From: Clostridia bacterium
GTDB taxonomy: Bacteria; Bacillota; Clostridia; Oscillospirales; CAG-272
Direction of reading: 5' to 3'
DNA: 64,000 bases
Assembly (NCBI GenBank): GCA_017407225.1
Contig: JAFQWY010000044.1
Span: 25 to 64,024 of the forward strand
This document shows, in pieces, positions 4,966 through 61,842 of this stretch. Numbering within the stretch: the first letter of the stretch is position 1; every line of letters begins with the position of its first letter. The position numbers were made by a program, and so were the translations under genes. A model generated the notes under the pieces. That model was not told the origin of the DNA. It was given only the letters and a program-made list of their open reading frames with translations, and searched no databases.

Positions 4966-6330
4966 TTATTTCGTCTTGAAGTATTTTGCCCACATCTTTG
5001 CGGACTTTGCGGTGGTGTGCTTCATTTCTTCGGCATCTGCATCGCCGGTGAGGTACTGACGCATGATTTCGCCGTCTACAGCGGTCTGACGGTCGTGAAC
5101 GGGATAGAAGTTTTCCATCAGGAAGCATGCATACTTCTGGAAGCGGTGCTCGCCCACCAGACGGAATTCCGCGGAAATGGAGTCAACGGCAACGCTGTAT
5201 CTGTCCTTGACGGACTGGATGATATCGCCGCGCTCGTTCTTGTGGGCGAATACGATGGTGGAGCAGATATCCGAGTTGCGGTTGTGCTCGGTGGAGCCGT
5301 GGCTGTCCGTGGAGCCTACGATGGGATGAACCCGTCCCTGACGGTATTCGTCGTAGTACAGCGCGGTCTGGAAGCCGTTGTGTTCGTAGTAGTTTTCGCC
5401 GCCCAGAACTTCAAAGGCATCAAAGGGATGCTTTGCCAGCATATACTTGGTGAAGGGTTCGGGAATCTGCCACATATCGGACAGCCAGTAGGGATGTGCA
5501 AACACGCCCAGACCGCCTGCCTGACGGATCTTTTCAAACGCCCATACGCATACCGCGTACCAGCGGCTGTTTACATTGGAAGGGCAATCGGTCAGGTTCT
5601 TTTCGATTTCGTCCACCTCCGCGTTGTACTGCTCCATGGATACGATATCGGGGCAGTCAACGGTTTCGTCGAAGCGGCGCTTGTCGAGCTCCCCGTCGGT
5701 TTCCTTATAGTTCGCAAGATTTTCCAGCAGACCGTTGACGGAGAACAGACCGCCCGCGTTGACGATGTGCACATCGGTCTGGGGCAGGTGAACTTCTTCG
5801 CCGGGGAGGATGTTCAGGGGAATTTCGGTATCGGCGTATGCGTTCATGGCTTCCAGGGAAGGATAATACCGTCCGTGGTCGGTGACAACGATGAAGTCAT
5901 AGCCTCTCTTGCGGTAGTTGGCGCATACCACTGCGGGAGCTTCCCGACCGTCGGAGCGGCAGGTGTGCATATGGAGGTCGCCGCGGAGAGGGATACGGCA
6001 CGCCATATCGTCGGCGAGAGCGTACAGGGAAAGCTGCAGAACGCGGGAGTCGCCCCTGAACACGCGGACGATCAGCTCGGTTTCCGCCTCAGCGGTATAG
6101 GTGAAGCGCAGGCATCCGTCCTCTTCGGGGGAGAGCTCGTAATCGGTGCGGTTCCAGGAGGAGAAATCCTGACGGGGAGAACCGGAATCCACGCGCATCA
6201 CGGACACGCGGTAGCTGCCGGAGAACGCTGCGTGCGCGCCCTGGGGCTTGATGGTGATTTCGGTGGGATCGTTCACGGGGAACACCATGGGGAAGATGTC
6301 GTAATCGTAGAGAACCTGCTTCATTTTCAT
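4966..6330 (-). CDS. PHP-domain metal-dependent phosphoesterase with an N-terminal beta-rich extension
   Basis: GDLHMHTCRSDGREAP...GYDFIVVTDH...VHIVN...GSTDSHG are the His/Asp clusters typical of the PHP (polymerase and histidinol phosphatase) fold. GGAGGT RBS is present. Confidence 0.75.
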   Translation of the reverse strand: MKMKQVLYDYDIFPMVFPVNDPTEITIKPQGAHAAFSGSYRVSVMRVDSGSPRQDFSSWNRTDYELSPEEDGCLRFTYTAEAETELIVRVFRGDSRVLQLSLYALADDMACRIPLRGDLHMHTCRSDGREAPAVVCANYRKRGYDFIVVTDHGRYYPSLEAMNAYADTEIPLNILPGEEVHLPQTDVHIVNAGGLFSVNGLLENLANYKETDGELDKRRFDETVDCPDIVSMEQYNAEVDEIEKNLTDCPSNVNSRWYAVCVWAFEKIRQAGGLGVFAHPYWLSDMWQIPEPFTKYMLAKHPFDAFEVLGGENYYEHNGFQTALYYDEYRQGRVHPIVGSTDSHGSTEHNRNSDICSTIVFAHKNERGDIIQSVKDRYSVAVDSISAEFRLVGEHRFQKYACFLMENFYPVHDRQTAVDGEIMRQYLTGDADAEEMKHTTAKSAKMWAKYFKTK

Positions 6331-6435
6331 GGGAATGTACCTCCGGTGTGGGATTATTTTTATTTTTTCTTTGAGTTTTTTAGTTTGTCTGCTGCTTTTT
6401 TATTCTGGTTTGAGTTATTGTTTTTTACTATAATG

Positions 6436-7012
6436 TTGAAGAAAAGACTGGCGTCTTTTCGATTTTTATTTTCTCTCCTGCGCGGAGGGCGGACAAGAGG
6501 ACTTATCGAAGCCCTCTTGTCAATCACCACGACCCGAGGGTTTTCCACCCTCAGGACTCCCTCCGCCGCGGGCGCGTACCCGTGTAGCTGAAATTTTATA
6601 GCGATCTCCCGTCAGGGATGGGGCTCGAAGATTTCCCCGTTCTGTTCAGTCACTTTCTGCGAAAGTGGGCGGGCTGGCGAGACATAACTACTGCGGGCAC
6701 TGAAAGCCGTGAAGCGCACTTGCGCGGTTTGGAAACTTAAACAAAGCTTAACGGCTGTATGTTTGGCATAAATCCCAGCTGATATCACGCCCCCGGCGTC
6801 GTCAGTTGAAATCCAGCCCCAAAAATACGCACTGTCCGTGCACAATCCTCCAAAACTGCAGCAGCGTACCAAGACGCGGAACCCAATAAGGGAGAAGCCG
6901 AAGAACCGTAGGTTCGCGGGGCCGGGATCGTTAAGGTCGCGGCCTGAGCGATCTTAACCGCCCCACGCGCAGTGGAGAAATAAAATCGAAAAGACGCCAG
7001 TCTTTTCTTCAA
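6436..7012. repeat. 577-bp element made of two inverted copies of a roughly 270-300-nt structured repeat (family copies A-left and A-right)
   Basis: Terminal inverted repeats TTGAAGAAAAGACTGGCGTCTTTTCGATTTT.. lie at 6436-6490 and 6958-7012 (complement). Homologous copies are at 16853-17115 and 24330-24619. I see no credible ORF inside. Confidence 0.85.
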
Positions 7013-7195
7013 TATATTCCCTCAGCTTACCCCAAGCTGACAATACAGCCGTACGCCAGTACATCCATTATACCACGCTCCACCCGTTTTTGCAACCTTT
7101 TATCGAAAAAGGCGATGCCCCGCTGCAGGCTGAATCTTTATTCACAAAAAAACCGTCTGCGTAAGGCAAATACTCAACATTCTGCATCAAAACCG

Positions 7196-7224
7196 TTGAC
7201 ATCCTTCATGGACTGTGCTATAAT
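7196..7224 (+). promoter_or_regulatory. Consensus sigma-A promoter
   Basis: TTGACA (7196-7201), 17 nt, TATAAT (7219-7224), with a TGc extended -10. It lies about 50 nt upstream of the 7278 ORF. Confidence 0.7.
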
Positions 7225-7277: not shown

Positions 7278-8714
7278 ATGCAAAAAGATGAAATGAAATC
7301 ATATACATCCCGCGTGAATAGCGAAACCCGCGAGCATGAAACAAAAGTGGAATATTCCGACTCCACGCACCTTATCGAGCAGTCCGCGTACCGGTACTCC
7401 CTGCAGGAGAGAGCCGATCCCAACCTGTACCGCCTCCTCTTCGACTACGAATCCGTGCCGAAGGTTTCCTTCAACCACCGCTTCGTACCCATCGGCATGC
7501 CGGAGCATATCTGGATCACCGACACCACCTTCCGCGACGGTCAGCAGGCACAGGAACCCTTTACCGTGAAGCAGATCACCGACCTGTACCGCATGATGCA
7601 CCGTCTGGGCGGCCCCAGGGGTCTGATCCGCCAGTGCGAATTCTTCGTCTATACGGAAAAGGACCGTGAGGCACTGCAGGAATGCCAGGCTCTGGGCTAC
7701 GAATTCCCCGAATGCACCACGTGGATCCGTGCGGCAACCAAGGACTTCCAGCTGGTAAAGTCCCTGGGCATCCGGGAAACCGGCGTGCTGGTATCCTGCT
7801 CCGACTACCATATCTACAACAAGATGGGGCTGACCCGCGCATCCGCTCTGGATAAGTACCTGGGCGTCATCAAGGAAGTGCTTGACATGGGTATGTCGCC
7901 CCGCTGCCACTTCGAGGACATCACCCGTGCCGATTTCTACGGCTTTGTGGTTCCCTTCGCGGAAGCTCTGCAGGTTCTCTCCGAGCAGTACGGGATTCCG
8001 GTGAAGATTCGCGCCTGCGACACCATGGGCTACGGAGTTTCCTATCCCGGCGCCGCCCTCCCCAGATCCGTACCGGGCATCATCTACGGTCTGACCCACT
8101 ATGCCGGCGTTCCCTCCGAGATGCTGGAATGGCACGGCCACAACGACTTCTACAAGGCAGTCACCAACAGCGCCACCGCATGGCTTTACGGCTGCTCCTC
8201 CGTCAACTGCACCCTGATGGGCATCGGCGAACGGTGCGGCAACACGCCTCTGGAAGCCATGATCATGGAATACGCCTCCCTCCGCGGCACCACCGACGGC
8301 ATGGACACCACGGTCATCACCGAGATCGGCGAATACTTCCGCAACGAGATGGGCTACGACATTCCCCCGAAGACTCCCTTTGTGGGACGTGACTTCAACG
8401 TGACCAAGGCCGGCATCCACGCGGACGGTCTGATGAAGGACGAGGAGATTTACAACATCTTCAACACGGAAAAGCTCCTGAACCGCCCGGCACAGGTGGC
8501 CATCGACTCCCACAGCGGTCTGGCAGGACTGGCGTACTGGATCAAGAACCGGTGCCCCGACAAGCATTCCCAGACTGTTGACAAGCGTTCCCCCGTTGTG
8601 CAGAACATGAAGGAACTGATCGACTACGAATACGCCAGCGGACGCACCACGACGATGAGCGACAGCGAGCTTCTGATCCTCTACCGCGCCGCCAAGGAAA
8701 TGTGCGAAGAATAA
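7278..8714 (+). CDS. HMGL-like aldolase-type synthase (2-isopropylmalate / homocitrate / Re-citrate synthase family)
   Basis: ITDTTFRDGQQA, CHFEDITRAD, EWHGHNDFYKAVTNS and GIGERCGNTPLE are hallmark motifs of the DRE-TIM HMGL family. The length and N-terminal extension resemble clostridial Re-citrate synthase. The exact start is uncertain. Confidence 0.8.
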   Translation: MQKDEMKSYTSRVNSETREHETKVEYSDSTHLIEQSAYRYSLQERADPNLYRLLFDYESVPKVSFNHRFVPIGMPEHIWITDTTFRDGQQAQEPFTVKQITDLYRMMHRLGGPRGLIRQCEFFVYTEKDREALQECQALGYEFPECTTWIRAATKDFQLVKSLGIRETGVLVSCSDYHIYNKMGLTRASALDKYLGVIKEVLDMGMSPRCHFEDITRADFYGFVVPFAEALQVLSEQYGIPVKIRACDTMGYGVSYPGAALPRSVPGIIYGLTHYAGVPSEMLEWHGHNDFYKAVTNSATAWLYGCSSVNCTLMGIGERCGNTPLEAMIMEYASLRGTTDGMDTTVITEIGEYFRNEMGYDIPPKTPFVGRDFNVTKAGIHADGLMKDEEIYNIFNTEKLLNRPAQVAIDSHSGLAGLAYWIKNRCPDKHSQTVDKRSPVVQNMKELIDYEYASGRTTTMSDSELLILYRAAKEMCEE

Positions 8715-9121: not shown

Positions 9122-9475
9122 TCAGGGGAGTGGCGGAACTGTCTGCGGGATTTTGTACACGAGTATGGGGATATTTCTTTTTTTGCAGGCTTCAATCACA
9201 AATCCGGTTCCTTTGGATTTCCCGTCCCAGAATGCCAGAACCATATCGGCATATTCTATGATGGACAGATTTCGCTTCAGGGGTGCCCCTCTTCCGTAAC
9301 GGCTGTACTCCGGTCTGAACTCTGTCAGCGGAATTCCGTGTGCAAGCGCGTACTCTTTCGCACAGGTATCCACTCCCTTTGCGCCGCCCGACACAATTTC
9401 GGTTGTATCCTGCGGCAGATAGTCCTGCAGGTTCTCGATTCTGATCTCTCTGGATCCTATTACGGCTACTTTCAT
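9122..9475 (-). CDS. DUF2493 / SLOG-superfamily (DprA/LOG-like) protein
   Basis: The internal start MKVAVIGSR has an AAGGAGG RBS. IVSGGAKGVDTCAKEYA, RYGRGAPLKRN and VLAFWDGKSKGT match the DUF2493 pattern, which is common on phages and plasmids. Confidence 0.7.
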   Translation of the reverse strand: MKVAVIGSREIRIENLQDYLPQDTTEIVSGGAKGVDTCAKEYALAHGIPLTEFRPEYSRYGRGAPLKRNLSIIEYADMVLAFWDGKSKGTGFVIEACKKRNIPILVYKIPQTVPPLP

Positions 9476-15520: not shown

Positions 15521-16768
15521 TCAGTCCGCGGTGTTTCCGTTTGCGTCAACCCACTTCTTATTTGCCGGATCCACGCAGATCAGGAGCTTGTTCATGTCGG
15601 TGTCGAAGACCTGCTGCATATAGGTGGGGTAATAGCTGAGTCGTTCTTTGGTACCGCAGGCGGGCTTGTGAGTCAGATTCCGGGTACGGATTCCCACGCC
15701 GGATCCGTCGTTTTCCCAGAGCTGCGCCGTGGGATCGTTGAGGTGATGCCATGCAGGCTGGAGGGTGAAGTCAATGTTTCCGCGCCATGTGCCGGGATGA
15801 ACCTCACGCATACAGTCGCCGAGCACGCCGCCGGGGGACTGTTCCGCGATCCGCTCCATGTTGAAGCTGATCATGGTGACTTCCTGCATCCCCTGCATTC
15901 TCGTGTTCGTTCCCTTGATGCTGTCGCCGCAGCTGTTGAAGAGGGGGAGGCACACATTGCGCTCGTCCATGCAGTTGATGAGGGTGATTGGGTGATTTGC
16001 ACCGCAGCTGATGCCGTAGTTGCCGAAGGTGTATCCGTAGTAGCACATGACGGCGTTGCAGTTGATGAGAACCACATGCTCGCCGCTGATCTGGATGCCC
16101 TCGTAGAAGCCGCAGGCACCCACGTCTGTGAAGTTGGCGTAGCTGTTGTTGCTTCCGTCGGTGGCGGTGAGACCGATGCATCCTTTGGCGGGGATGGTCG
16201 GCGGTTTGCCGAAGCCTGCGTTCATTTCGCGGATGGCGCTGAGCTTGAAGTTTTTCACCTCGATGCGGTCACAGCGGCGCAGATCCACGCAGCGGATGGG
16301 CTTTTTGTTGTGGGAGAGTGAGATGCGGATGTTTTCCAGCACCAGTGCGGATCCGGCGGAAATGCCCTTCGGGAGCCATGTGGTACGGATCACGTCCGGG
16401 GGATTTTTTGAGGGATCGTTTGCGTTGGCGTCGTATTCCCGGTCTTCGATGGTGTCGAGAGCGGCGCGGCTGACGTAGAACTGAACGCTGTCGGAACCGC
16501 TGTATGCGGAATTCTGCCCCTTGAAGATGTACTCCCGGCGGTTATTGGGGAAGCACAGTGCGGCAAGGGGGCCTCCGTCGCCGAAATCGTGGAATCCGTC
16601 GATGCGGTAGATGCCGTTTGCGAGGAGGATGTTTTTGTTCTCTTTGGCGGCTTTGTCGATGGCCTGCTGGATGGTGATTTCGTCGTGGCTGCCGGTGCAG
16701 ATGAAATCCGCGGCGTATCTGAGTTCGTCCGATGCCGTGGACGGGACTACGAAGATGTCGGTAAGCAT
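15521..16768 (-). CDS. Right-handed beta-helix (pectate-lyase-superfamily-like) protein, no signal peptide
   Basis: The N-terminal DEITIQQAIDKAAKENKNILLANGIYRI resembles the Pectate_lyase_3 entry motif. Repetitive Cys/Asn-rich turns follow. The product call is tentative. Confidence 0.55.
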   Translation of the reverse strand: MLTDIFVVPSTASDELRYAADFICTGSHDEITIQQAIDKAAKENKNILLANGIYRIDGFHDFGDGGPLAALCFPNNRREYIFKGQNSAYSGSDSVQFYVSRAALDTIEDREYDANANDPSKNPPDVIRTTWLPKGISAGSALVLENIRISLSHNKKPIRCVDLRRCDRIEVKNFKLSAIREMNAGFGKPPTIPAKGCIGLTATDGSNNSYANFTDVGACGFYEGIQISGEHVVLINCNAVMCYYGYTFGNYGISCGANHPITLINCMDERNVCLPLFNSCGDSIKGTNTRMQGMQEVTMISFNMERIAEQSPGGVLGDCMREVHPGTWRGNIDFTLQPAWHHLNDPTAQLWENDGSGVGIRTRNLTHKPACGTKERLSYYPTYMQQVFDTDMNKLLICVDPANKKWVDANGNTAD

Positions 16769-16852
16769 GGTGGGCGGTGTCCTTTCTTTTGTTTTTTTGT
16801 CAGCGGGCTGACGGGGAGTTTTTGCTGAACTTCCCGTTCGAGGGATATTGTA

Positions 16853-17115
16853 GAAAATGCATTCGCATTTTCAGATTTTATTACTCCACTGCGCGTGGGG
16901 CGCACAAAGGATCTCCGTTGCCGATCCTTTGTGAATTCCTGCAACTCAAACGAACCTGCGGTTCTTTTGAGAATTTCTCCCTTTGCCTGCGGCGCGTACC
17001 GCTGCGGCTTTGAATTATGCTGAACGCAATACGGTTCGGATAGGCTGTGATTCCTCTTAGGTTTCAGCCTGCGGCGGCGAGACGAAGTCGTTTCGGGCAC
17101 TGACAGCGGGACGTA
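16853..17115 (+). repeat. Copy B of the structured intergenic repeat family
   Basis: It aligns by hand to the reverse complement of 6860-7012 and to 6436-6720. It has hairpins GAAAATGC/GCATTTTC (16853-16872) and CACAAAGGATC/GATCCTTTGTG (16903-16933), and the conserved CTCCACTGCGCGTGGGGCG. Confidence 0.8.
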
Positions 17116-17124
17116 CAGTTCAGA

Positions 17125-17159
17125 TATTATCTATTCTCTATTCTTTCTTATCTCTTATC
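17125..17159 (-). repeat. Purine-rich heptad array (GATAAGA GATAAGA AAGAATA GAGAATA GATAATA on the minus strand)
   Basis: Five contiguous 7-nt units. Near-identical arrays lie at 61843-61877 and 55934-55968, and a degenerate one at 24664-24705. Confidence 0.85.
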
Positions 17160-17178
17160 GCAGGCGAAGCCGCTTCGT

Positions 17179-18228
17179 TTACTCACACTTTTCACGGAAC
17201 GCTGTCCATGCGTCAAGGTGCGCCTGATCCGCTTCTGCGGTGATGTTGCCGATCATTTCCATGCGGTCGGAGGTGAATTCGGTGGGCAGGGTGAGGAAGG
17301 GGCGGTATTCTTCGCTGATATAGGGTTCGGATGCGCTGGCGGTGCAGTAGTAGCCGAGATATTCGTAGCATTTTGCTCCGCGCTGGGGATCCAGGATGAA
17401 TTCGATGAACTTATGGGCCGCATCCGCATTGGGGGCTTTCGAGGGGATGAACATTCCCATGATGCCGAAGCCGATGCCTTCTTCAGGGAACACCACTTCA
17501 AGGGAGGGATCGGTCATCTTCGCCATGGTCACCTGGGAGGTATAGATCACGGCGGCGTCGATTTCTCCGGCAAGGAGGTCGTCCTGGGTATTGTCGTCCT
17601 TGATGAGACGGATATTGGGAGCCAGAGCGGTCAGATGTTCGCCGGCAGCTTTGATGGTGTCCACATCGGTGGTGTTGTAGCTTTCGCCCATGACCTTCAG
17701 TGCCATGCCGTTGATCACACGGTAGTTGGAGATGATGCCAACCTTGTCAGCCAGAGCGGGATTCCACAGGTCTGCGTAGCCGTTAATTTCAATGTCAATC
17801 TTTGCGGGGTTGTACACAATGGTCTGAACGCCCGCGCCGTAGGGGATGGTGTATTCGTCGGTGGGATCGAAGAACTGACCCTGATACAGGGGATTCACGT
17901 TGCCGTGGGAGGGGATTTTCGCCTTGTCCAGCTTCTGTGCCAGACCTTCGGCGATAACGGTTTCGATGATGTAGTCGTCGGCGATGATGAGGTCATAGGT
18001 GCCGCCTTCTTCCGCCTGCAGCTTGGCAAGCATGGTTTCGCCGTAGTCGTAGTTGACGTAATTGATGCGGATGCCGGTTTCGGCTTCAAAATCGGCGAGG
18101 ACTTCGTCGGGGAACATTCCCGCCCATGTGTAGAGGTTGAGTACCTCACCGGATCCGGATGTGCAGGACACCAGTGCGGGCAGGATGAGGATGAGCGCGA
18201 GAACGAGGGTGAAAATACGCTTTTTCAT
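17179..18228 (-). CDS. potD: Spermidine/putrescine ABC transporter substrate-binding lipoprotein
   Basis: Lipobox LVSCTS. LNLYTWAGMFPDEVLADFEAETGIRINY is typical of PotD/PotF. It is the last gene of a potABCD-ordered operon. Confidence 0.85.
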   Translation of the reverse strand: MKKRIFTLVLALILILPALVSCTSGSGEVLNLYTWAGMFPDEVLADFEAETGIRINYVNYDYGETMLAKLQAEEGGTYDLIIADDYIIETVIAEGLAQKLDKAKIPSHGNVNPLYQGQFFDPTDEYTIPYGAGVQTIVYNPAKIDIEINGYADLWNPALADKVGIISNYRVINGMALKVMGESYNTTDVDTIKAAGEHLTALAPNIRLIKDDNTQDDLLAGEIDAAVIYTSQVTMAKMTDPSLEVVFPEEGIGFGIMGMFIPSKAPNADAAHKFIEFILDPQRGAKCYEYLGYYCTASASEPYISEEYRPFLTLPTEFTSDRMEMIGNITAEADQAHLDAWTAFREKCE

Positions 18229-21232: not shown

Positions 21233-21297
21233 ATAATGTAGCGCAATATGTTGTATCCGCGCGAATTTTGAATTTTTTCCACGGGAGGTCACGAATT

Positions 21298-24288
21298 TTG
21301 ACTGTCCTTACTGAACATATCAGAAATATTGCCGGGAAAATCGCACTCGGCATTGACGTCGGCTCCACGACCGCGAAAATTGCGGTGGTAAAGAACGGCG
21401 AAATCATCCGCCAGACCTACGAACGCCACTTTTCCCGGATCCGTGAGACTCTGGTGAAGATGCTCCGGGATACTGCGGAGCTGCTGGGAGACTCCCCTTT
21501 TACCGCGGCCATCTCCGGTTCCGCCGGACTTGGGCTGGCTCAGGCAACCGATGTTCCCTTCGTGCAGGAGGTGTGGGCAACCAGTCAGGTGATCCAGACC
21601 ATGGATCCCGATGTGTCCACGGTCATCGAGCTGGGCGGAGAGGATGCGAAGATCATCTTCTTCCAGGGCGGCACCGATGAGAGAATGAACGGTACCTGTG
21701 CAGGCGGCACGGGCGCGTTCATTGACCAGATGGCATCCCTCCTTGACGTAACTCCCGACGAGCTGGACGAGCTGGCACTGCAGCATAAGAAGCTGTACCC
21801 CATTGCATCCCGGTGCGGGGTTTTTGCAAAGACCGACGTGCAGCCCCTTCTCAATCAGGGTGCATCCAAAGCGGACGTTGCCGCATCCATCTATCAGGCC
21901 GTGGTGAACCAGACCATTGCCGGATTGGCGCAGGGACGGAAAATCGAGGGCAGAGTCATGTTCCTCGGCGGCCCTCTCTATTTCTGCAAAGGTCTGAGAG
22001 AGCGGTTCACCGATACCCTGAAGCTGACACCCGAGAACGCGGTGTTCCCGGATTATGCGAGAAACGCCGTATCTCTCGGTGCGGCGCTGTACTCCGAAAC
22101 CGCCTGCGGGAGGACCTACACCATTGACGGGCTGATTTCACTGGTGGAAAACGCAAAGATCCGATCCACCTCCACCAGAATGCCGCCCCTGTTTGAAAGC
22201 CAGTACGAATACGACCGGTTTGCCGAGAGACATTCCCGGGCATCCGTCATCGAGAAGCCCATCGAATCCTACTCCGGGAACGCGTGGCTGGGCATCGACT
22301 GCGGCTCCACCACCACGAAGCTGACCCTGATCGGTGAGGACTGCGAGATTCTCTATACTTACTACGACTCCAACCGGGGCAATCCCGTTGCCATCGTGCG
22401 CCATGAGCTGGAAACCATCTACGATAAATGCGGAAGCCGGATCACGGTCTGCGGCGCGGCTGTCACCGGCTACGGCGAAGACCTGATCAGGAACGCATTC
22501 GGCGTGGATCACGGCATCGTGGAAACCATCGCGCACTATACTGCCGCAAAATACTTCCGCCCCGACGTGGATTTCATCCTCGACATCGGCGGACAGGATA
22601 TCAAGTGCTTCAAGATCCGGAACGGAGCCGTTGACCGCATCATGCTCAACGAGGCCTGCTCCTCCGGATGCGGCTCCTTCATCGAAACCTTCGCCCGCTC
22701 CATGCACCTGACTGCGGAACAGTTTGCCAGAAAGGCGCTGTTTGCAGAGTCCCCGGTGAATCTGGGCAGCCGGTGCACGGTGTTCATGAATTCCCAGGTC
22801 AAGCAGTCCCAGAAGGACGGCGCAACCGTGGAGGATATCTCCGCCGGTCTGTCCGTATCCGTGGTGAAGAACGCGATCTATAAAGTAATCCGCGCACATT
22901 CCCCCGATGAGCTGGGTCAGCATATCGTGGTGCAGGGCGGTACCTTCTACAACGATGCGGTTCTCCGCGCCTTCGAGCGTGAAATCGGCGGCGAGGTCAT
23001 CCGTCCCACCATTGCGGGGCTGATGGGTGCCTACGGTGCCGCGCTCTACTCCAAAGACAAATCCGAAACCGAAAAGAACTATAAATCCTCCATTCTTTCT
23101 CCGGCGGAGCTGAAGAATTTCGTCCACACCTCCCGTACCATGACCTGTAAGGGATGCACCAACAACTGCCTGCTGACCGTCAATCAGTTCTCCGGTCACA
23201 GCAGCGGCAGCGCACGGTTCATCTCCGGCAACAAGTGCGAAAAGGGCGCGGGTCTGGCTCATACCACGGAGGATATGCCCAATCTCCACCAGTTCAAGCG
23301 GGATGCACTCCTTGCCGCCTGCCCCTCCGAAAAACCGGAAACTATCGCAAAGCGCGGCATGATCGGGCTGCCCCTGTGCCTCGGAATGTTCGAGCTTCTT
23401 CCCCTGTGGGCGGGCATCTTCGAGACTCTCGGCTTTACCCCCGTTTCCTCCGGGATGTCTTCCCGTGCCACCTACGAAAAGGGTCAGTTCTCCATTCCCT
23501 CCGATACCGCCTGCTACCCGGCAAAGATCATGCACGGACACATCGAAACTCTCGCCGAGATGGGATGCAGAACCATCTTCTATCCCCGTCTCACATGGAA
23601 CGTGAACGAGCATGAAAGCGACAATCACTACAACTGCCCGGTGGTGGCATACTACAGTGAGCTTCTCCGCGGCAATATGGATACCCTCCGGGGCAAGCGG
23701 TTCCTGTACCCCTATCTGGATGTGAATAACCCGAAGGAGCTGGCAAACGGGCTGTTCAGATCCCTGTCAAAGCACTGGCCGGATATGAAAAAGTCCGAGG
23801 TGAAGAAGGCCGTGGACGAAGGATACCGCCGCCTCAACGGGTACATGAAATCCGTCCGGGATGAGGGCGAGAGAGCCGTACAGTGGGCGAGGGATAACGG
23901 AAAGCCCATCATGATTCTGGCCGGCCGTCCCTATCACGCAGACCCCGAAATCGGCCACGGCATCGATAAGCTGGCGCTGTCCCTGGGGTTCGTCGTGGTC
24001 TCCGAAGACGCCGTGTACCATCTGGCGCATACCCCCAAGGTTCAGGTGCTCAATCAGTGGACGTACCACAGCCGCCTGTACCGTGCCGCCGTCTATGCCA
24101 CCCAGAACAGGGACGTTCAGCTGGTTCAGCTGGTCTCCTTCGGATGCGGCGTGGATGCCATCACCACCGACGAAGTCAAGCGCATTCTGGAGGCCGACGG
24201 CAAATACTACACCCAGATCAAGATCGACGAAATCACCAACCTCGGCGCCGTGAAGATCCGCCTCCGCAGCCTTGCAGCGGTAATCTGA
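21298..24288 (+). CDS. CoA-substrate-specific enzyme activase: two BcrAD/BadFG ATPase domains plus a 2-hydroxyacyl-CoA-dehydratase-like (DUF2229) domain
   Basis: Two ASKHA phosphate-1 motifs are present, GIDVGSTTAKIAVV and GIDCGSTTTKLTLI. Then come a Cys-rich linker and the CYPAKIMHGH dehydratase-like region. The likely start is TTG at 21298, 9 nt after GGGAGG; the track opens at TTG 21268. Confidence 0.8.
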   Translation: MTVLTEHIRNIAGKIALGIDVGSTTAKIAVVKNGEIIRQTYERHFSRIRETLVKMLRDTAELLGDSPFTAAISGSAGLGLAQATDVPFVQEVWATSQVIQTMDPDVSTVIELGGEDAKIIFFQGGTDERMNGTCAGGTGAFIDQMASLLDVTPDELDELALQHKKLYPIASRCGVFAKTDVQPLLNQGASKADVAASIYQAVVNQTIAGLAQGRKIEGRVMFLGGPLYFCKGLRERFTDTLKLTPENAVFPDYARNAVSLGAALYSETACGRTYTIDGLISLVENAKIRSTSTRMPPLFESQYEYDRFAERHSRASVIEKPIESYSGNAWLGIDCGSTTTKLTLIGEDCEILYTYYDSNRGNPVAIVRHELETIYDKCGSRITVCGAAVTGYGEDLIRNAFGVDHGIVETIAHYTAAKYFRPDVDFILDIGGQDIKCFKIRNGAVDRIMLNEACSSGCGSFIETFARSMHLTAEQFARKALFAESPVNLGSRCTVFMNSQVKQSQKDGATVEDISAGLSVSVVKNAIYKVIRAHSPDELGQHIVVQGGTFYNDAVLRAFEREIGGEVIRPTIAGLMGAYGAALYSKDKSETEKNYKSSILSPAELKNFVHTSRTMTCKGCTNNCLLTVNQFSGHSSGSARFISGNKCEKGAGLAHTTEDMPNLHQFKRDALLAACPSEKPETIAKRGMIGLPLCLGMFELLPLWAGIFETLGFTPVSSGMSSRATYEKGQFSIPSDTACYPAKIMHGHIETLAEMGCRTIFYPRLTWNVNEHESDNHYNCPVVAYYSELLRGNMDTLRGKRFLYPYLDVNNPKELANGLFRSLSKHWPDMKKSEVKKAVDEGYRRLNGYMKSVRDEGERAVQWARDNGKPIMILAGRPYHADPEIGHGIDKLALSLGFVVVSEDAVYHLAHTPKVQVLNQWTYHSRLYRAAVYATQNRDVQLVQLVSFGCGVDAITTDEVKRILEADGKYYTQIKIDEITNLGAVKIRLRSLAAVI

Positions 24289-24293
24289 TTTCC

Positions 24294-24319
24294 GGGACGT
24301 CGGGGGCGCCGTCCCCTAC
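24294..24319 (-). repeat. Solo REP (GGGACGTCGGGGGCGCCGTCCCCTAC)
   Basis: On the + strand it reads identically to the 1177-1302 units as read on the RAYT coding strand (i.e. their reverse complement), and it matches the third unit of the 1465-1538 array except at one position. It starts 6 nt after the activase stop. Confidence 0.9.
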
Positions 24320-24329
24320 CGTGATTGAA

Positions 24330-24619
24330 AATTATCCTGCCCTCTGTAAATCTACGGCAACAATTCCCGCCTCGCGCAAAGCGCGTTCCCTTAGGGAAGC
24401 AGTTCAGTGATGCTATACGGTCGAAGATAGAGTAATGCTTTAAGCCAAACGAGCGAACGAGCACTGTTCACCTTCGGTGAAAGTGGAGCGAACTGAAAAG
24501 GGAGAAGCCGAAGAACCGCAGGTTCGCGGGGCCATGGTTCATAGGATCTGCGGCCTGAGCGATCCTATGCGCCCTCCGCGCAGGAGAGAAAAATCCAATC
24601 GAAAATGCGGAGCATTTTC
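24330..24619 (-). repeat. Copy C of the structured intergenic repeat family
   Basis: GGGAGAAGCCGAAGAACCGCAGGTTCGCGGGGCC is nearly identical to 6890-6923. It has hairpins CATAGGATC/GATCCTATG (24540-24569) and GAAAATGC/GCATTTTC (24601-24619). Confidence 0.8.
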
Positions 24620-24663
24620 AACAACATTCCCCAACCGTGAAGTCTGCACGGATTCACTGCTGA

Positions 24664-24705
24664 AAGAATAAAGAAGATAGAACAAATCATAAAGAATAAA
24701 GCAAA
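24664..24705 (+). repeat. Degenerate purine-rich heptad array (AAGAATA AAGAAGA TAGAACA AATCATA AAGAATA AAGCAAA)
   Basis: It has 7-nt periodicity and lies immediately upstream of the 24717 start. Confidence 0.6.
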
Positions 24706-24716
24706 GGAAACCGCCC

Positions 24717-25967
24717 ATGCCTTACGTTCCTTTCACAAAGGAGATGAAGGAAACCCACACCATCCTCATCCCCAATATGCTGCCCATCCACTTCAAGCTG
24801 GTCAGCCGTATTTTGAATAACTTCGGATACAAAACCGAACTTCTCACCACCACCAATGCATCCATCGCGGAAACCGGACTGAAATACGTCCATAACGATA
24901 CCTGCTATCCCGCCATCCTCGTTATCGGACAGATGCTGGAAGCGCTCATGTCCGGGAAATACGATACCAAAAAGTGCGCGCTGATGCTGTTCCAGACCGG
25001 CGGCGGATGCCGTGCTTCCAATTACGTCTCCCTCATGCGGAAGGCTCTGGAAAACGCCGGGATGCCATACGTTCCCGTGCTTCCTCTGGGTCTGGCGGGC
25101 ATCGAAAAGCACCCCGGATTCGAAAACTCCATCCCCATGTACCACCGCATGGTCTATGCCGTTCTCTACGGAGATCTGCTCATGTCCCTTGCCCATCAGG
25201 TGCGCCCCTACGAAATCACAAAGGGAGACGCCGATGCCCTGTGCGACAGGTGGGTGGACCGTCTTGACAGGGAGCTGCAGCATAAGACCATCAATTACGC
25301 GAAAATCAAAAAGAACTACGACGAGATCATCCGGGACTTTGCCGCCGTGCCCAGAGAAAAGCGGGAAGCTGTCAGAGTCGGCATCGTCGGCGAGATTTAT
25401 GTGAAATTCTCCCCCCTCGGCAACAACAATCTGGAAAAATTCCTGGTCAGCGAGGGCGCGGAAGTGGTTCTCCCCGGTCTGGCGGACTTCTTCAACTACT
25501 GCCTGTACAACGGCGTCGTGGACTACCAGCTCTACGGCAAGGGCAAGTTCAGCCATGTGCTGAATCAGATCGGCTTCGACTTCATCTGCGGAAAGCAGAA
25601 GGACCAGATCGCCGCCATCGAAAAGGAAGGTACCTTCCGTGCCATGACTCCCTTCTCCCATACCGTGGAGCTTGCCAAGGGCTATATCGGTTACGGCACC
25701 AAGATGGGCGAAGGATGGCTCCTGACTGCGGAGATGATCGAGCTTGCCGAATCCGGCGTGAAGAACATTGTCTGCACCCAGCCCTTCGGATGCCTGCCCA
25801 ACCACATCTGCGGCAAGGGCATGATGAAGCCCATCAAGGAAAAAATCCCCGGGGTCAACATCGTCGCCATCGACTACGACGCAGGCGCATCTGCGGTCAA
25901 TCAGGAAAACCGCCTGAAGCTGATGCTGGCCGCCGCACGAAGAAACCTGGAACTGTCTGCGGAATAA
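24717..25967 (+). CDS. 2-hydroxyacyl-CoA dehydratase-family / activase-associated (DUF2229-like) protein
   Basis: HNDTCYPAILVIGQMLEAL, FQTGGGCRASNY and QPFGCLPNH are motifs typical of this family. It lies directly after the activase gene. Confidence 0.75.
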   Translation: MPYVPFTKEMKETHTILIPNMLPIHFKLVSRILNNFGYKTELLTTTNASIAETGLKYVHNDTCYPAILVIGQMLEALMSGKYDTKKCALMLFQTGGGCRASNYVSLMRKALENAGMPYVPVLPLGLAGIEKHPGFENSIPMYHRMVYAVLYGDLLMSLAHQVRPYEITKGDADALCDRWVDRLDRELQHKTINYAKIKKNYDEIIRDFAAVPREKREAVRVGIVGEIYVKFSPLGNNNLEKFLVSEGAEVVLPGLADFFNYCLYNGVVDYQLYGKGKFSHVLNQIGFDFICGKQKDQIAAIEKEGTFRAMTPFSHTVELAKGYIGYGTKMGEGWLLTAEMIELAESGVKNIVCTQPFGCLPNHICGKGMMKPIKEKIPGVNIVAIDYDAGASAVNQENRLKLMLAAARRNLELSAE

Positions 25968-26939: not shown

Positions 26940-27084
26940 TCGGATAAATACCAGAAACTGTCTCGGTTCATTCGGAATCGGGACAGTTTTTTTGTGCAGA
27001 TTTTTGGATTTCTTTGGATTTCCGTTGCAATTTTCGTGAGAATCCGCTATAATGGAATCACCAAAACAGAACGGAGGACTGCTT

Positions 27085-27822
27085 ATGCAGGGAGAGAGCT
27101 ACATCACCATCGCCGGGGACTGCATCCGGAAGGCGTGGGATTCCCAGCGGGATACTATCGCAGAGGCCGCCGGATGGATCGCGGAAACCATCGGGCAGAA
27201 AAACAACGTGTTCGTGTTCGGATGCTCCCATGCCGGCATCATTGCGGAGGAGGTATTCTACCGCACCGGAGGACTGGCGGTCATCAACCCCATTTTCTTC
27301 CCCGGATTCATGCTCAACACCCGCCCCATCACCATGACCAGTTCGCTGGAGAGAGTGTCCGGGATCGGCAAGACCCTCCTCAGCCAGAATCATGTGAGTG
27401 AGGGCGACCTCCTCATCGTGCATTCGGTATCGGGACGGAATACGGTGCCGGTGGAAATGGCGGAGGAAGCGAAAAAACTGGGGGCGCGGACGGTGTGCAT
27501 CACCAATCTCAACTACTCCCGGGCAGTCAGCTCCCGTCATCCGTCGGGGAAAAGACTGTTCGAGGTGTCGGATCTTGTGATTGACAACTGCGGCGACTTC
27601 GGGGATGCGGCGGTTCAGCTGGACGGACTTCCCGAAAAGATCGGTGCAACCTCTACCGTAGTGGGCGCGGCGCTGATCAACGCCATCGTCATCGACGCGG
27701 TGGAGAAAATGATCGCCGACGGCATTGTTCCGCCGGTGTTCATGAGCGCCAACATCGACGGCGGCGACGAACACAACGCAAAAATTTTTGAAGAATACCG
27801 GGACAATATTTTCTATATGTAA
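27085..27822 (+). CDS. SIS-domain protein (UPF0309-like)
   Basis: The start MQGESY has GGAGG 7 nt upstream. VFVFGCSHAGIIAEEVFYRTGGLAVINPI and LIVHSVSGRNTVPVEMA match the UPF0309/SIS pattern. Confidence 0.75.
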   Translation: MQGESYITIAGDCIRKAWDSQRDTIAEAAGWIAETIGQKNNVFVFGCSHAGIIAEEVFYRTGGLAVINPIFFPGFMLNTRPITMTSSLERVSGIGKTLLSQNHVSEGDLLIVHSVSGRNTVPVEMAEEAKKLGARTVCITNLNYSRAVSSRHPSGKRLFEVSDLVIDNCGDFGDAAVQLDGLPEKIGATSTVVGAALINAIVIDAVEKMIADGIVPPVFMSANIDGGDEHNAKIFEEYRDNIFYM

Positions 27823-27903
27823 TGTGTGAATGATACCGTGCATCGGTCAGGATGTGCGGCTGCATTCACACCCAAAATATATCTGGAAAAGGAGGTACTT
27901 CCA

Positions 27904-28896
27904 ATGGAAAAATACCATCTTGCGTTTGACTCCGGCGGTTCCAAGGTGCTGGGCATCTTATATAATGAAGAGTTTCAGCCAATCCGCGCCGTGAGAACGG
28001 GAAGCCTCAGATCCAACACAACAACGGAAGACAGAATCCGGACGAATATCGCCGATATCATCGATACTCTTGAGCTGCCCGGAATGCACATCGGCAGAGT
28101 CTCCGGCATCGTGGACTGCGGTCTGCTCCATGAGGAAATCCGGAAAGTCTGCACCGTGGACGAGACCGTGGGATGCGGCGAATTTGCGGCAGGAATGTGG
28201 GCGGCGGAGATTTTCGGCGACGGAATCCTTGCCCTGTCCGGGACGGGTGCCACTTTGTTTGCGCGGCACAACGGACGGGGATACGGCACCGGCGGCTACG
28301 GTGCGGCGGTTTCCGATGAAGGAAGCGGCTACTGGGTGGCACGGGAGGCGTTCAATGCGGCGATTCTGGACGATCAGGAACGGGGTGAGCGAACCCTCCT
28401 GACCGATCTGATCGCGGAGCACTTCGGACTGACCCGCCCGGACTTCCACGATGCGGTGTTCCGGGTTTATTATCAGGAGCGGCTGTCCCCGGTGGCGTGC
28501 GTTGCCTCCTGTGCCCCTCTGGTTTCCCGTGCGGCGGAAGCAGGGGACGGAATTGCCATGGACATTCTCGGACGAGCCGGACGGGGGCTTGCCGAGCAGG
28601 TACTGTATCTTGTCCGGAAGAACGATCTGCCGAAGGATCTGCCGGTTGCGATATCCGGGAGCGTGTGGAGATCCCACCGGATTCTGTATGATACCTTCCG
28701 GGGGATCCTCCGGGACGGCGGCATGACCGCGAAGGTGAAAATCCCCCTGTTCGAGCCCATCGTGGGCGTCATCATCGGACACCGGATCGCGGAAAACGGC
28801 ACCTTCGGCGAAAAAGAACGAAAGGAATTCACAGACCGGTTTTCTGAATACCGGTTTGCAATACAACAGGAACAAAAGGAGAGTTTCCCATGTTAA
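27904..28896 (+). CDS. BadF/BadG/BcrA/BcrD-type ATPase (N-acetylglucosamine-kinase-like sugar kinase)
   Basis: The start MEKYHLAFDSGGSKV is an ASKHA phosphate-1 motif, with an AAGGAGG RBS. LSGTGATLFA and SDEGSGYWVAREA are typical of this family. Confidence 0.75.
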   Translation: MEKYHLAFDSGGSKVLGILYNEEFQPIRAVRTGSLRSNTTTEDRIRTNIADIIDTLELPGMHIGRVSGIVDCGLLHEEIRKVCTVDETVGCGEFAAGMWAAEIFGDGILALSGTGATLFARHNGRGYGTGGYGAAVSDEGSGYWVAREAFNAAILDDQERGERTLLTDLIAEHFGLTRPDFHDAVFRVYYQERLSPVACVASCAPLVSRAAEAGDGIAMDILGRAGRGLAEQVLYLVRKNDLPKDLPVAISGSVWRSHRILYDTFRGILRDGGMTAKVKIPLFEPIVGVIIGHRIAENGTFGEKERKEFTDRFSEYRFAIQQEQKESFPC

Positions 28897-29624
28897 TGCA
28901 TCGTTATCAGCAGGCAGTGGACGAGCTGCTGGCAAAAGTGCGCGAAACCCAGACCGAAAACATCATCAAAGCCGGAAAGCTCATCGCGGACACCGTGGCA
29001 TCGAAGCACAAAATCTGGCTGGGCAGCATCTGCCACAGCATCGAGCAGGATCTTCTGACACGCGGCGGCGGACCCCTGTTCTACCGTCCCTTCAGCTACA
29101 ACAGCGCACAGCCCGCAGGAACGGACGCGGATACATCCGCCGACGAATCCGTGGAACCGAATGTGCGCGCGGCGAGAAATGCTCTCATCAACGGCGGCGT
29201 GAAGCCCGGGGATCTTCTGGTGCTCAGCTCCGTGTCCGGCAGAACCCGTCATGTGGTGGATCTTGCGTGGGAAGCCATGGCGCAGGGTGTTACCGTCATC
29301 GCGTTCACAAGCATGAGCTACGCGAAAGAGGTGGATCCCGTCCATCCCTCTGGCAAAAAGCTGTACGAATTCGTCACCATGGCGGTGGACAACTGCGCAC
29401 CTGCAGCGGAAGCCATGCTGGAAGTGGAAGGCATCGAAGCCAGATTCGCGGCGGCATCGGGGATTGCATCCGACTACATCATGTGGAACATCACATCCTG
29501 TGCCGTGGAAGAGCTGCTGGCAAGAGGCATCACCCCCGGCATCTACAAGAGCGCCAACTATCCCGGCGGCGCGGACTACAACAACAATATCCTCACCCCC
29601 AACTACGAAAAGAACGGTTGGTAA
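28890..29624 (+). CDS. Divergent SIS-domain protein (second UPF0309-like paralogue)
   Basis: LVLSSVSGRTRHVVDLA and HPSGKKLYEF parallel the motifs HSVSGRNTVPVEMA and HPSGKRLFEV of 27085..27822. It overlaps the kinase stop by 7 nt. Confidence 0.7.
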   Translation: MLMHRYQQAVDELLAKVRETQTENIIKAGKLIADTVASKHKIWLGSICHSIEQDLLTRGGGPLFYRPFSYNSAQPAGTDADTSADESVEPNVRAARNALINGGVKPGDLLVLSSVSGRTRHVVDLAWEAMAQGVTVIAFTSMSYAKEVDPVHPSGKKLYEFVTMAVDNCAPAAEAMLEVEGIEARFAAASGIASDYIMWNITSCAVEELLARGITPGIYKSANYPGGADYNNNILTPNYEKNGW

Positions 29625-29691
29625 CTGAATCAGAAGGGGCATTGTAAGCAGAAATTTTCTCGGCAAAATGCAAACGAAGATAAACAAAATT

Positions 29692-29788
29692 GTAGGGGAC
29701 GGCGCCCACGACGTCCCGTTGCGTTGAATTAAGATGTGTTATATATCTGTAATTCTTCGTTTCGGGACGTCGGGGCGCCGTCCCCTAC
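29692..29788. repeat. REPIN-like doublet: forward REP (29692-29717), 46-nt spacer, inverted REP (29764-29788)
   Basis: GTAGGGGACGGCGCCCACGACGTCCC ... GGGACGTCGGGGCGCCGTCCCCTAC. This is the same core as inside the RAYT gene. Confidence 0.9.
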
Positions 29789-29944
29789 CCTTATTTTATG
29801 CATTTTCGCCTTAATGCGACACGCCCTTTTTCCGTTTCCATGATTTTTAAGAAAAATTTCTGCGCCCCGGTCAGATCTGTCACAAAAGCCCCGTTTTTTC
29901 CGTCTAAGGGGTGAAGATCTTCAAATCATAAAGGAGCCGAGACC

Positions 29945-31200: not shown

Positions 31201-31258
31201 TCCGCGGAATAACAAAAATCGGACTGTTGCACTAAGGAGAAAAATGCACAGAAAATTG

Positions 31259-31355
31259 GTAGGGGACGGCGCCCCGACGTCCCGAAACAAAGGATTACAG
31301 ACACAAAATACGTCTTAATCCAATGTCTCGGGACGTCGAGGGCGCCGTCCCCTAC
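31259..31355. repeat. REPIN-like doublet: REP (31259-31283), 46-nt spacer, inverted REP (31330-31355)
   Basis: The spacer is the reverse complement of the 29718-29763 spacer at 34 of 46 positions by hand alignment. The whole element is therefore inverted relative to 29692-29788. Confidence 0.9.
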
Positions 31356-48839: not shown

Positions 48840-48947
48840 GATTTCCGCAAGGAAATCAACCTTAACTGCCGCAGGCAATTTCACTTTCCGCAGGAAAATT
48901 TCACGCTGCGAAGCAGTATTTCACTCACCGCAGGTGAATTTCACTCT
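48840..48947 (-). repeat. Palindrome plus four 20-bp-period direct repeats (minus-strand unit GTGAAATTnnCCTGCGG)
   Basis: ATTTCAC recurs at 48878, 48898, 48918 and 48938, exactly 20 nt apart. CCGCAGG-like cores lie at 48845, 48869, 48888, 48908 and 48928. The palindrome GATTTCC-GCAA-GGAAATC is at 48840-48857. Confidence 0.85.
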
Positions 48948-55920: not shown

Positions 55921-55933
55921 GCGCCTCCGGCTA

Positions 55934-55968
55934 AGATAAGAGAGAATATTGAATAGATAATAGATAAG
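55934..55968 (+). repeat. Purine-rich heptad array (AGATAAG AGAGAAT ATTGAAT AGATAAT AGATAAG)
   Basis: Five 7-nt units lie between rbsK and ruvX. Confidence 0.8.
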
Positions 55969-56014
55969 AATCCGCCCGTACTTTTGCGGAAGCGGATGAG
56001 TCGGAGTACAGTTT

Positions 56015-61807: not shown

Positions 61808-61837
61808 CGGTATCTCCTTCCCGGGGATGCCGTTTTT
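61808..61837 (+). terminator. Intrinsic terminator after the nanA-like gene
   Basis: CGGTATCTCC (61808-61817) pairs with GGGGATGCCG (61823-61832) with two G-U pairs, followed by TTTTT. Confidence 0.7.
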
Positions 61838-61842
61838 GCTTG

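Follow-up and report, generated by a model that had tools for sequence, protein, structure and literature searches.

A 64,000-nucleotide stretch of contig JAFQWY010000044.1 (assembly GCA_017407225.1, Clostridia bacterium; hereafter the window, whose positions are used throughout) contains four copies of a structured intergenic element of 270–310 nt each. The copies lie at 6436–6745 (copy A), 6745–7030 (copy B), 16835–17125 (copy C) and 24325–24640 (copy D). The element has a defined fold of four hairpins that is maintained by covariation, wobble pairs biased to one strand and a regular orientation with respect to neighbouring genes; it is gained and lost between relatives, and its copies exchange segments as mosaics. 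It is given about an even chance of representing a family, so far uncatalogued, of structured RNA repeats that are dispersed, recombine and are co-transcribed, as BOX, ERIC and bcr repeats are, and that probably act in cis on mRNA processing or stability. The traits shared with those repeats are dispersed noncoding intergenic copies (four in 64 kb, with others in relatives), compensatory structure and variable positions. According to the best reading, the family is specific to an uncultured gut Clostridia lineage related to Oscillospiraceae.

The four positions had been reported in an initial annotation made from the letters alone, and a hidden Markov model (HMM), a covariance model and reading of the sequence all bear them out. 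The HMM of the 135-nt core matches the window exactly four times (E 5e-36 to 2e-30). The covariance model, run with its filters off, gives 111–120 bits for each copy and 11 bits for the next best match, and the degenerate core pattern CTCNNCTGCGCGNNGGGCG has four exact matches against 0.17 expected by chance. That the element is noncoding, as had been proposed, is agreed on inspection alone. Relatives' loci (numbered with the prefix L) were fetched around homologues of three flanking proteins and amount to about 400 kb in total.

Copies A and B form a 577-bp inverted pair with arms of 41 nt that are 90% complementary. The pair had been noticed in the initial annotation and is real; it is not one unit, because a relative (L107) has the copy at the A position and none at the B position. 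A and B are two separate copies placed tail to tail.

Hairpin architecture and covariation

In the P1-first orientation, which is that of the initial annotation, the element consists of a TTGWWG start, hairpin P1, a T-rich linker of 10–14 nt, hairpin P2, GGGCG, hairpin P3, a short joint, hairpin P4, the block TTCTCCCTT and a tail of 130–170 nt. The folded strand is the reverse of this. In mRNA sense it comprises a variable 5′ tail, the purine block AAGGGAGAA, P4, P3 with a G-U pair, CGCC, P2 with a GNGNA loop, an A/U-rich linker, A-U-rich P1 and the end UWCAAYAU..UCCC.

P1, named helix 1 in the initial annotation, occupies 6441–6460 in A, 6988–7007 in B, 16853–16872 in C and 24601–24619 in D; in copy A its arms are GAAAAGAC/GTCTTTTC. 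It is an A-T-rich stem of 7–8 bp with a loop of 3–4 nt and three G-C pairs only. Five stem variants occur (GAAAAGAC, GAAAATGC, GAAAAGGC, GAAAAGC and CAAAATGC), and the pairing is entirely Watson–Crick in all 12 copies that have P1 (100% of scorable cells), which is strand-neutral; L087 has no recognisable P1. In the alignments, P1 is separated from P2 by an unpaired A/U-rich linker of 10–14 nt with AAUC at its end on the folded strand (A 6461–6474 (−), B 6976–6987, C 16873–16885, D 24587–24600).

P2 has a stem of 4 bp and a pentaloop of the form G-N-G-N-A, which reads GCGCA on the folded strand, and is preceded by a conserved CGCC; it is found at 6475–6487 (−) in A, 6963–6975 in B, 16886–16898 in C and 24574–24586 in D. 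Read P1-first, the stem is CTCC/GGAG in A and D and CCAC/GTGG in B and C, with the loop TGCGC in each; the full set has six variants (CUCC/GGAG, CCAC/GUGG, GCCC/GGGC, GCAC/GUGC, GUCC/GGAC and GCCU/GGGC). The initial annotation had taken this region (CTCC.CTGCGCG.GGGG) for a conserved single-stranded block; it is actually a covarying hairpin.

P3, the former helix 2, is the long and variable hairpin (9–13 bp; A 6492–6521 (−), B 6930–6958, C 16903–16933, D 24540–24569). Ten distinct stem sequences are present among 12 distinct copies, and the loop carries the motif GGC..GA. P4, the former helix 3, lies at 6533–6555 (−), 6898–6919, 16945–16971 and 24508–24529 in A to D and has at least five stem variants. 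On the folded strand it is preceded on its 5′ side by the conserved purine block AAGGGAGAA, which is GGCGGAGGGAG in A-type copies (6556–6567, 6885–6897, 16972–16987 and 24495–24507). Reading of the sequence reveals an extra tail hairpin in some copies only: CGGG-UACGCG-CCCG in A (6569–6582 (−)) and GCGG-UACGCG-CCGC in C (16989–17002). All helices listed in the initial annotation, including this one with its CGCGTA loop, are present as written.

The tail is of at least two types, B and D having another type than A and C. The module UCAGUGCCCG...GUCUCGCC is located at 6676–6703 (−) in A and 17076–17103 in C and occurs also in copies in L094, L095 and L107. A block annotated as conserved in the element, GGCGAGAC...CGGGCACTGA, is indeed present, and among the window copies it is confined to A (6676–6703) and C (17076–17103). 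Covariation was not detectable in the 5′ tail, where RNAalifold gave invariant candidate pairs only.

Covariation was assessed on 13 distinct copies from the window and relatives, several of them related by descent or gene conversion, aligned to the covariance model. Paired cells account for 91.4%, compared with 70.9 ± 1.5% when partners are shuffled, and two-sided changes are found at 23 of 30 pairs. The covariation score is 0.532 against 0.187 in shuffles and was reached by none of 500 shuffles; sliding the partners by one column lowers pairing to 52–56%. P3 contributes two-sided changes at 10 of its 11 pairs, with 95% of cells paired. The claim that the hairpins are kept by compensatory changes, on which the initial annotation had centred, is thereby confirmed.

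These pairing statistics come from an alignment fitted to the model, and a structure-blind MAFFT alignment was used as an independent check. On it, RNAalifold recovered P1 together with part of P3 and the inner pairs of P4, and gave the P2 region another stem, of 3 bp; from the four copies of the window by themselves it recovered P2 too. The alternative stem (CGC/GCG) has one covarying change only, in L081. Unpaired blocks are more conserved than stems, and mean column identity in the core is 63–64%.

Several further candidates were considered and rejected. A small open reading frame (ORF) behind the Shine–Dalgarno-like AAGGGAG has no suitably spaced start codon in any copy read. A closing helix between AAGGGAG and a 3′ UCCCU could have at most 4–6 bp and is absent from some copies, and a pseudoknot between the P3 loop and the tail is seen in L087 only. 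An outward promoter in the P1 end (−35 TCGAAA, −10 TACAAT) was tried as a conserved function; the hexamers fit C and L094, not A, D, L081 or L095.

Folded strand, orientation and turnover

Each hairpin was folded separately on both strands, and whole cores were folded too. Of 12 distinct copies, 8 have exactly one G-U pair in P3, situated 3–4 bp below the loop, and at least four unrelated stem sequences are represented among them. The strand with this G-U reads tail, P4, P3, P2, P1 without exception, and no copy has A-C at that place on the gene-sense strand; on the opposite, P1-first strand the wobbles become A-C mismatches and the hairpin is 3–5 kcal/mol less stable. Further sense-strand wobbles are present in P4 of the A type (one), P4 of L094 (two) and P2 of the D-locus copy of L095 (one). 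Summed over distinct hairpins, the energy is −494 kcal/mol in sense against −445 kcal/mol in antisense, and 10 of 11 copies are more stable in sense when the core is folded as a whole. The initial annotation contradicted itself on this point: the G-T pair at 6930–6958 is a wobble on the plus strand only, the reverse of the minus orientation that it had assigned to copy B.

The folded strand is minus for A and C and plus for B and D, all within 20 kb; it therefore tracks local transcription direction and not one replication strand. The element differs in this respect from palindrome-associated transposable elements (PATEs) of the IS200/IS605 type, in which the folded strand lies on one replication strand, and the suggestion of single-stranded DNA used for mobilisation fits poorly with this alternation within 20 kb.

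On the folded strand, each window copy faces a gene start situated 85–266 nt past P1. Copy A (minus strand; HMM E 3.6e-34; covariance model 116.9 bits at 6434–6572 (−)) runs from tail to P1 toward a PHP-domain gene (4966–6330, −), with 106 nt between the P1 end and the start codon. Copy B (plus strand; HMM E 5.1e-36; 110.8 bits at 6882–7014 (+)) runs toward an isopropylmalate-synthase-like gene (7278–8714, +) and lies upstream of the promoter predicted for that gene at 7196–7224 by a promoter scan. Copy C (minus strand; 119.6 bits at 16846–16989 (−)) is positioned between a solute-binding-protein gene (17179–18228, −) and a gene for a 415-aa protein (15521–16768, −), and copy D (plus strand; 120.1 bits at 24492–24626 (+)) between an acyl-CoA dehydratase activase gene (21268–24288, +) and its DUF2229-like partner (24717–25967, +); both are co-directional with the two genes beside them. 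The L081 copy is likewise located between co-directional genes, fabZ and accC.

Eight of nine copies of clear context face the downstream gene (A, B, C, D, L081, the extra upstream copy of L095, L107 and L087b); the ninth, L087a, does not, and its P1 lies directly against the stop codon of the upstream gene. The downstream genes encode a PHP-domain hydrolase, an isopropylmalate-synthase-like enzyme, an unknown 415-aa protein, a DUF2229 dehydratase-like protein with a Mem_trans carrier, AccC and the activase, and no functional theme emerged among them. In every copy scanned, P1 with its T-run scored on the opposite strand as an intrinsic terminator. A reversed insertion would terminate the transcript of the downstream gene, and this alone is a sufficient explanation of the orientation rule. 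On the sense strand, terminator scans found neither a terminator nor a helix sequestering the Shine–Dalgarno sequence near the start codon.

A predicted promoter at 7067–7095 (−), TTGCAA-17-TATAAT with an extended TG, reads toward B, A and the PHP-domain gene, and L107 has an equivalent. The L107 promoter (9390–9418; TTGAAA-17-TATAAT with TG, 11 of 12 positions) stands back to back with that of the synthase-like gene and reads through a purine-rich stretch, a REP-like palindrome (REP, repetitive extragenic palindrome) and the sense-oriented element into the PHP-domain gene, giving a leader of about 575 nt. The extra L095 copy lies downstream of a conserved distal promoter.

Two features of these intergenic regions were noted in passing. 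The near-consensus promoters of the synthase-like and PHP-domain genes are arranged back to back both in the window (7067–7095 (−) and 7196–7224 (+)) and in L107 (9264–9292 (−) and 9390–9418 (+)). Purine-rich runs such as GAAAGAATAAAGAAGATAGAA are present at 24659–24701 (+), 17125–17176 (−), 55930–55970 and 61826–61878 and at L107 9426–9465; the run at 24659–24701 is just upstream of a start codon and that of L107 follows the predicted promoter. They may be a lineage-specific leader or translation-initiation feature.

The best matches of the flanking proteins are in metagenome-assembled genomes (MAGs) labelled 'Clostridia bacterium', and more distant ones include 'Ruminococcaceae', 'Butyricicoccus' and 'Candidatus Merdivicinus' (Oscillospiraceae). 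Two ENA contigs (L105 and L106; ERZ28653896 and ERZ28019354) are 99.8–99.9% identical to the window over the whole A/B region, and JGI sample 3300029305 also contains this organism. Copies at corresponding loci are present in L089 (B locus, about 90% nucleotide identity to the window), L090 (C and D loci; syntenic with window 15545–35663 at 82–96% identity, about 93% near C and D), L094 (D locus, 91% identity), L095 (D locus and one extra copy, about 85% identity) and L107 (A locus, about 85% identity). The L081/L082 copy between fabZ and accC belongs to a species with about 83% protein identity, and L087 has a diverged inverted pair of copies.

The initial annotation had raised presence or absence polymorphism, and copy presence does vary between relatives: at the D site, in the extra L095 copy and in the B position, vacant in L107. 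An element occupies the D site in the window, L090, L094 and L095; in L099 and L100, where the DUF2229 protein is 75–78% identical, only a 65-nt spacer is present, and these empty sites are too diverged to place the insertion point of D. The MAG behind L100 has the family elsewhere (L081). The extra L095 copy precedes the activase gene; at that place the window has 105 bases of unrelated sequence.

Copies that occupy one locus are mosaic in make-up, with segments of different subtypes. In L090, the copy at the D locus combines P3 and P4 of window copy B with the tail of D, and the copy at the C locus has a D-type tail; these two copies are identical over 48 nt in the P1-to-P2 part. In L094, the tail at the D locus is of C type. 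The B-locus copy of L089 has a body that is 87.5% identical to that of window copy A, in inverted orientation. The mosaics show frequent gene conversion or allelic replacement among family members; for L089, a single inversion across the 41-nt inverted repeats is an equally possible account.

Contigs L083, L084, L089 and L092 end within the element, in the manner of assemblies that meet a repeat. The contigs of the L081 species break (L083/L084 ends) at the palindrome CATTTGAATWWATTCAAATG in the tail of the element, and at L081 13700–14000 another repeat, GCACGAGCGTAGCTRTACTTAAATTTTGCAATTA, adjoins the element in 2–3 copies.

Terminal inverted repeats were sought in single copies: C has none, and D has only a 13-nt match of 85% between its 5′ end and a P1 arm. 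The two ends of D carry a 13-nt direct repeat, identical at 12 of 13 positions and present also in L090 (TCCCCTACCGTGA at 24312–24324 and TCCCCAACCGTGA at 24628–24640 (+)). This repeat, whose left copy shares bases with the head of a REP-like palindrome, is possibly a target-site duplication. At other loci, the extra upstream copy of L095 has a 12–14-nt flanking repeat with an indel and at different distances, and the rest have 6–10-nt or weaker matches at varying distances. No transposase-bearing relative was found in phage or plasmid collections or in the roughly 400 kb of fetched loci.

A separate REP-like family, GTAGGGGACGGCGCCCCCGACGTCCC, has a GTAG head typical of REPs associated with REP-associated tyrosine transposases (RAYTs), and is present in seven window copies against none expected by chance. 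They lie at 1177–1286 (+, three tandem 42-nt units), 1513–1538 (−), 24294–24319 (−), 29692–29717 (+) and 31330–31355 (−). The copy at 24294–24319 (−) adjoins copy D, and related REPs ending in CCCTACGG adjoin the element in L094, L095 and L107. The element itself is not a 20–40-nt, GC-rich, GTAG-headed, near-identical palindrome of the REP/REPIN type; the true REPs of this genome are a separate family.

REP-like motifs also start two inverted arms at 29692–29806 and 31241–31355 (115 nt, 84% complementary), which enclose 1434 nt; judged by synteny with L090, this segment contains a gene for an extracytoplasmic function (ECF)-type sigma factor and its neighbour, and it could be REP-flanked or invertible. 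About 3 kb with genes of the SIS_2, BcrAD_BadFG and SIS_2 families (26947–29894) are present in the window and L090 and missing from the 91%-identical L094, where the Mem_trans gene is directly followed by the sigma factor gene.

The initial annotation had been unable to match the element to a catalogued RNA family, and the same result was obtained with Rfam 15 on either strand: no family matches the element at the gathering level over the whole window, and in E-value mode nothing at three loci is below E = 2. The only Rfam match above the gathering threshold in the window is a Gut-1 RNA (RF01706) at 48873–48946 (−), with 75.6 bits and E 2.4e-13. The element has no match in the phage or plasmid collections and is no fragment of a sequence in them. 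Joint Genome Institute (JGI) metagenomes and viral contigs contained no true copy by specific patterns; a stricter two-gap pattern gave one chance hit in a coding region in the former and none in the latter. Among the 80 matches listed for the pattern AGGGAG-N50-80-CGCCCNNCGCGCAGNNGAG in genome contigs, the HMM recognised no true member; they are chance matches in high-GC genomes.

Elements of similar layout were met at L049 355–676 and L059 4845–4960 (Cephaloticoccus primus, a verrucomicrobium) and L042 6207–6310 ('Clostridiaceae bacterium strain 9'). They have CTCCACTGCGCGTGGGGCGG (CGCC/GGCG in L042) and variable hairpins followed by CTCCCT, and L049 is an inverted pair of about 320 bp. Their covariance-model scores are weak (E 2e-4 and 1e-3, at loci preselected by the search pattern) and homology is not claimed; they could be distant relatives or convergent.

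Proposed role and rival explanations

Each copy is most likely transcribed within the mRNA of the gene that it faces, in a long 5′ leader or an operon spacer, to judge from position (C, D and L081) and from predicted promoters (L107 and L095). The element is probably a cis-acting RNA module, and a mechanism is proposed with low confidence from its anatomy and by analogy. The G-poor, A/U-rich linker, which follows three stable hairpins and precedes a fourth, would be a candidate endoribonuclease site of RNase Y type. Cleavage there would leave the downstream message protected at its 5′ end by P1 and the upstream message at its 3′ end by P4-P3-P2; the stabilities of neighbouring cistrons would thereby be uncoupled. 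The opposite-strand terminator would then be a by-product that constrains orientation.

Several observations weigh against a co-transcribed RNA repeat of this kind. The transcription of the element and its strand are inferred, and the proposed cutting and stabilising is suggested, with low confidence, by anatomy and by analogy with mRNA decay in Firmicutes. The covariation set consists of only 13 distinct copies, several of them kin or gene-converted. An invariant U-G pair that extends P2 exists on the antisense strand only, where P2 is about 1.5 kcal/mol better. Copy B and the extra L095 copy are upstream of strong predicted promoters of their own genes and would enter the mRNA only via a more distal promoter or read-through. 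Copy B is, moreover, antisense in the leader that starts at the 7095–7067 promoter; its terminator-like P1 is about 50 nt past that promoter and would leave an RNA of only about 80 nt unless read through. REP-like palindromes adjoin four copies, and the loci may be permissive dumping grounds for selfish repeats.

The main rival, considered rather unlikely, is that the copies are selfish non-autonomous DNA of the kind represented by miniature inverted-repeat transposable elements (MITEs), REPINs or PATEs. The hairpins would be required at the DNA level, for instance by a trans-acting transposase that uses them in single-stranded form, and would have no RNA role; compensation would arise by palindrome correction or gene conversion, and orientation would be set by selection against the terminator. 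Gain and loss between relatives accord with this explanation, as do the mosaic copies with their homogenised 5′ parts within one genome and the recurrence of inverted doublets (A/B, L087 and perhaps L049 in Cephaloticoccus). A REP head coincides in part with the 13-nt end repeat of D, four copies have GTAG-headed REPs beside them, the P1-side flank has a REP-head-like motif, GTNGGGGA, and P1, being fully Watson–Crick, folds equally on both strands. However, single copies have no terminal inverted repeats, the flanking repeats seen at the loci compared are not of constant length, and phages, plasmids and the fetched loci yielded no transposase-bearing relative. The alternation of the folded strand (−, +, −, +) within 20 kb argues against transposition tied to one replication strand. 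The P3 G-U, kept across differing stems, suggests selection for the wobble, which palindrome correction would erase, and the greater conservation of unpaired blocks than of stems is the opposite of what young transposon copies display.

A bolder form of the co-transcribed RNA repeat is itself unlikely. On this view the copies would be mobile RNA cassettes of a new class. Each would move or recombine among operon spacers and 5′ leaders in gut Oscillospiraceae and be active as RNA, as a processing or stabiliser site, a platform for a global RNA-binding protein or a self-cleaving fold, with its one-sided terminator insulating the locus from opposite-strand transcription; the L042 and Cephaloticoccus elements, in which P2-GGGCGG and variable hairpins are followed by CTCCCT, would be distant relatives within a widespread, unrecognised family.

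It is improbable that the copies are independent small RNA (sRNA) genes transcribed P1-first, with UUCUCCCUU as a trans-acting anti-Shine–Dalgarno seed comparable to those of the C-rich sRNAs of Firmicutes. On the P1-first strand, UUCUCCCUU and CUCC motifs are indeed unpaired, the outer U-G pair of P2 exists on that strand only, and terminator-like tail hairpins are found at 6844–6826, 16987–17007 and 24472–24452. In addition, the predicted promoter at 7095–7067 faces copy B, and a −10-like TATAAT (6429–6434) immediately precedes copy A. Against this, P1 with its U-run at the 5′ end would stop such a transcript after about 30 nt, no promoter before P1 is conserved across copies, and P3 and two P4 sequence types have A-C mismatches on this strand in most copies; the C, D and L081 copies would be antisense inserts within operons.

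A regulon-type cis-regulator, that is, a riboswitch or the site of one RNA-binding protein that relays a common signal to unrelated genes, is equally hard to favour and appears very doubtful. The conserved unpaired blocks between covarying helices, the conserved G-U and the loop motifs (GNGNA, and GGC..GA in P3) are features expected of such an RNA, and the copies lie upstream of a gene and co-directional with it. The downstream genes, however, are functionally unrelated, two copies are upstream of the gene's own promoter, and locus occupancy is conserved among close relatives only. An expression platform is also missing, P1 being no sense-strand terminator and lying 85–266 nt from the start codon.

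Least of all do the data favour A/B as an invertible switch, in which the 41-nt repeats (6433–6473 and 6975–7015) would flip a segment of about 500 bp and so alter two divergent genes: the inverted arms are 90% identical, and the roughly 90%-identical L089, whose contig breaks within the segment, joins the B flank to an inverted A-like body (87.5%) as one inversion would give, but no promoter is predicted inside the segment, L105 and L106, each assembled independently from the window's strain, both have the window's orientation, either orientation leaves one copy facing each gene so that a flip changes little, and mosaic replacement, as at other loci, explains L089 without inversion; the switch is considered highly improbable.

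If the family is indeed one of co-transcribed RNA repeats, an abundant, uncultured group of gut Clostridia would carry structured RNA modules, possibly dozens or more per genome, that are swapped among the leaders and spacers of unrelated operons, and each insertion would give its transcript a one-way terminator and a stable hairpin block. The elements are also a source of error in annotation, where they can pass for terminators or sRNA genes, and assemblies break at them. A well-supported fold outside Rfam, with a conserved wobble and conserved loops, is a candidate for biochemical study, and the mosaic copies at fixed loci represent a natural system for the evolution of structured repeats under gene conversion. 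No new principle is involved; pneumococci, enterobacteria, Neisseria and Bacillus also have structured interspersed repeats.

Comparison with known repeats and terminators

P1 resembles an intrinsic terminator in being, on the opposite strand, a hairpin followed by a T-run. It differs in being A-U-rich, with three G-C pairs, and in constituting one module of a larger conserved element; it also faces transcription from the side of the downstream gene, where there is nothing obvious to terminate.

Correia elements (CREE) of Neisseria and other MITEs are, like the present element, small, non-autonomous, intergenic and strain-variable; CREE and MITEs can be co-transcribed and can act via promoters, terminators or RNase sites. 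The definition of a MITE includes terminal inverted repeats, which single copies here do not have, and target duplications; a convincing flanking repeat is present at one locus only, that of D. The REP, BIME and REPIN sequences associated with RAYTs share an intergenic position, palindromic structure and frequent inverted doublets, and REPs are transcribed in operons and can stabilise upstream mRNA. A REP, however, is one GC-rich, GTAG-headed hairpin of 20–40 nt with near-identical copies; the present element is about ten times longer, and has four hairpins with divergent stems and a P1 that is not GC-rich.

The repeats bcr1–bcr18 of the Bacillus cereus group include some families with compensatory changes that are thought to act as RNA, and others that are MITE-like; mobile elements of bcr1 type have terminal inverted repeats and a fixed target duplication. 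They form a Firmicutes set of comparable size that raises the same question of mobile DNA or structured RNA. Single copies of the present element differ in having no terminal inverted repeats and in showing no consistent target duplication.

The BOX repeats of Streptococcus pneumoniae (boxA-boxB-boxC) and the ERIC/IRU repeats of enterobacteria are intergenic, noncoding and modular elements of 100–300 nt that are co-transcribed, form stem-loops, have no transposase of their own and vary between strains. The present element differs in that it shares no sequence similarity with them and belongs to an uncultured Oscillospiraceae-like lineage; its four defined hairpins have divergent stems and conserved unpaired joints, and it adds a one-sided terminator and a strict orientation rule. 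Like those repeats, it is dispersed, intergenic, modular and hairpin-forming, with positions that vary.

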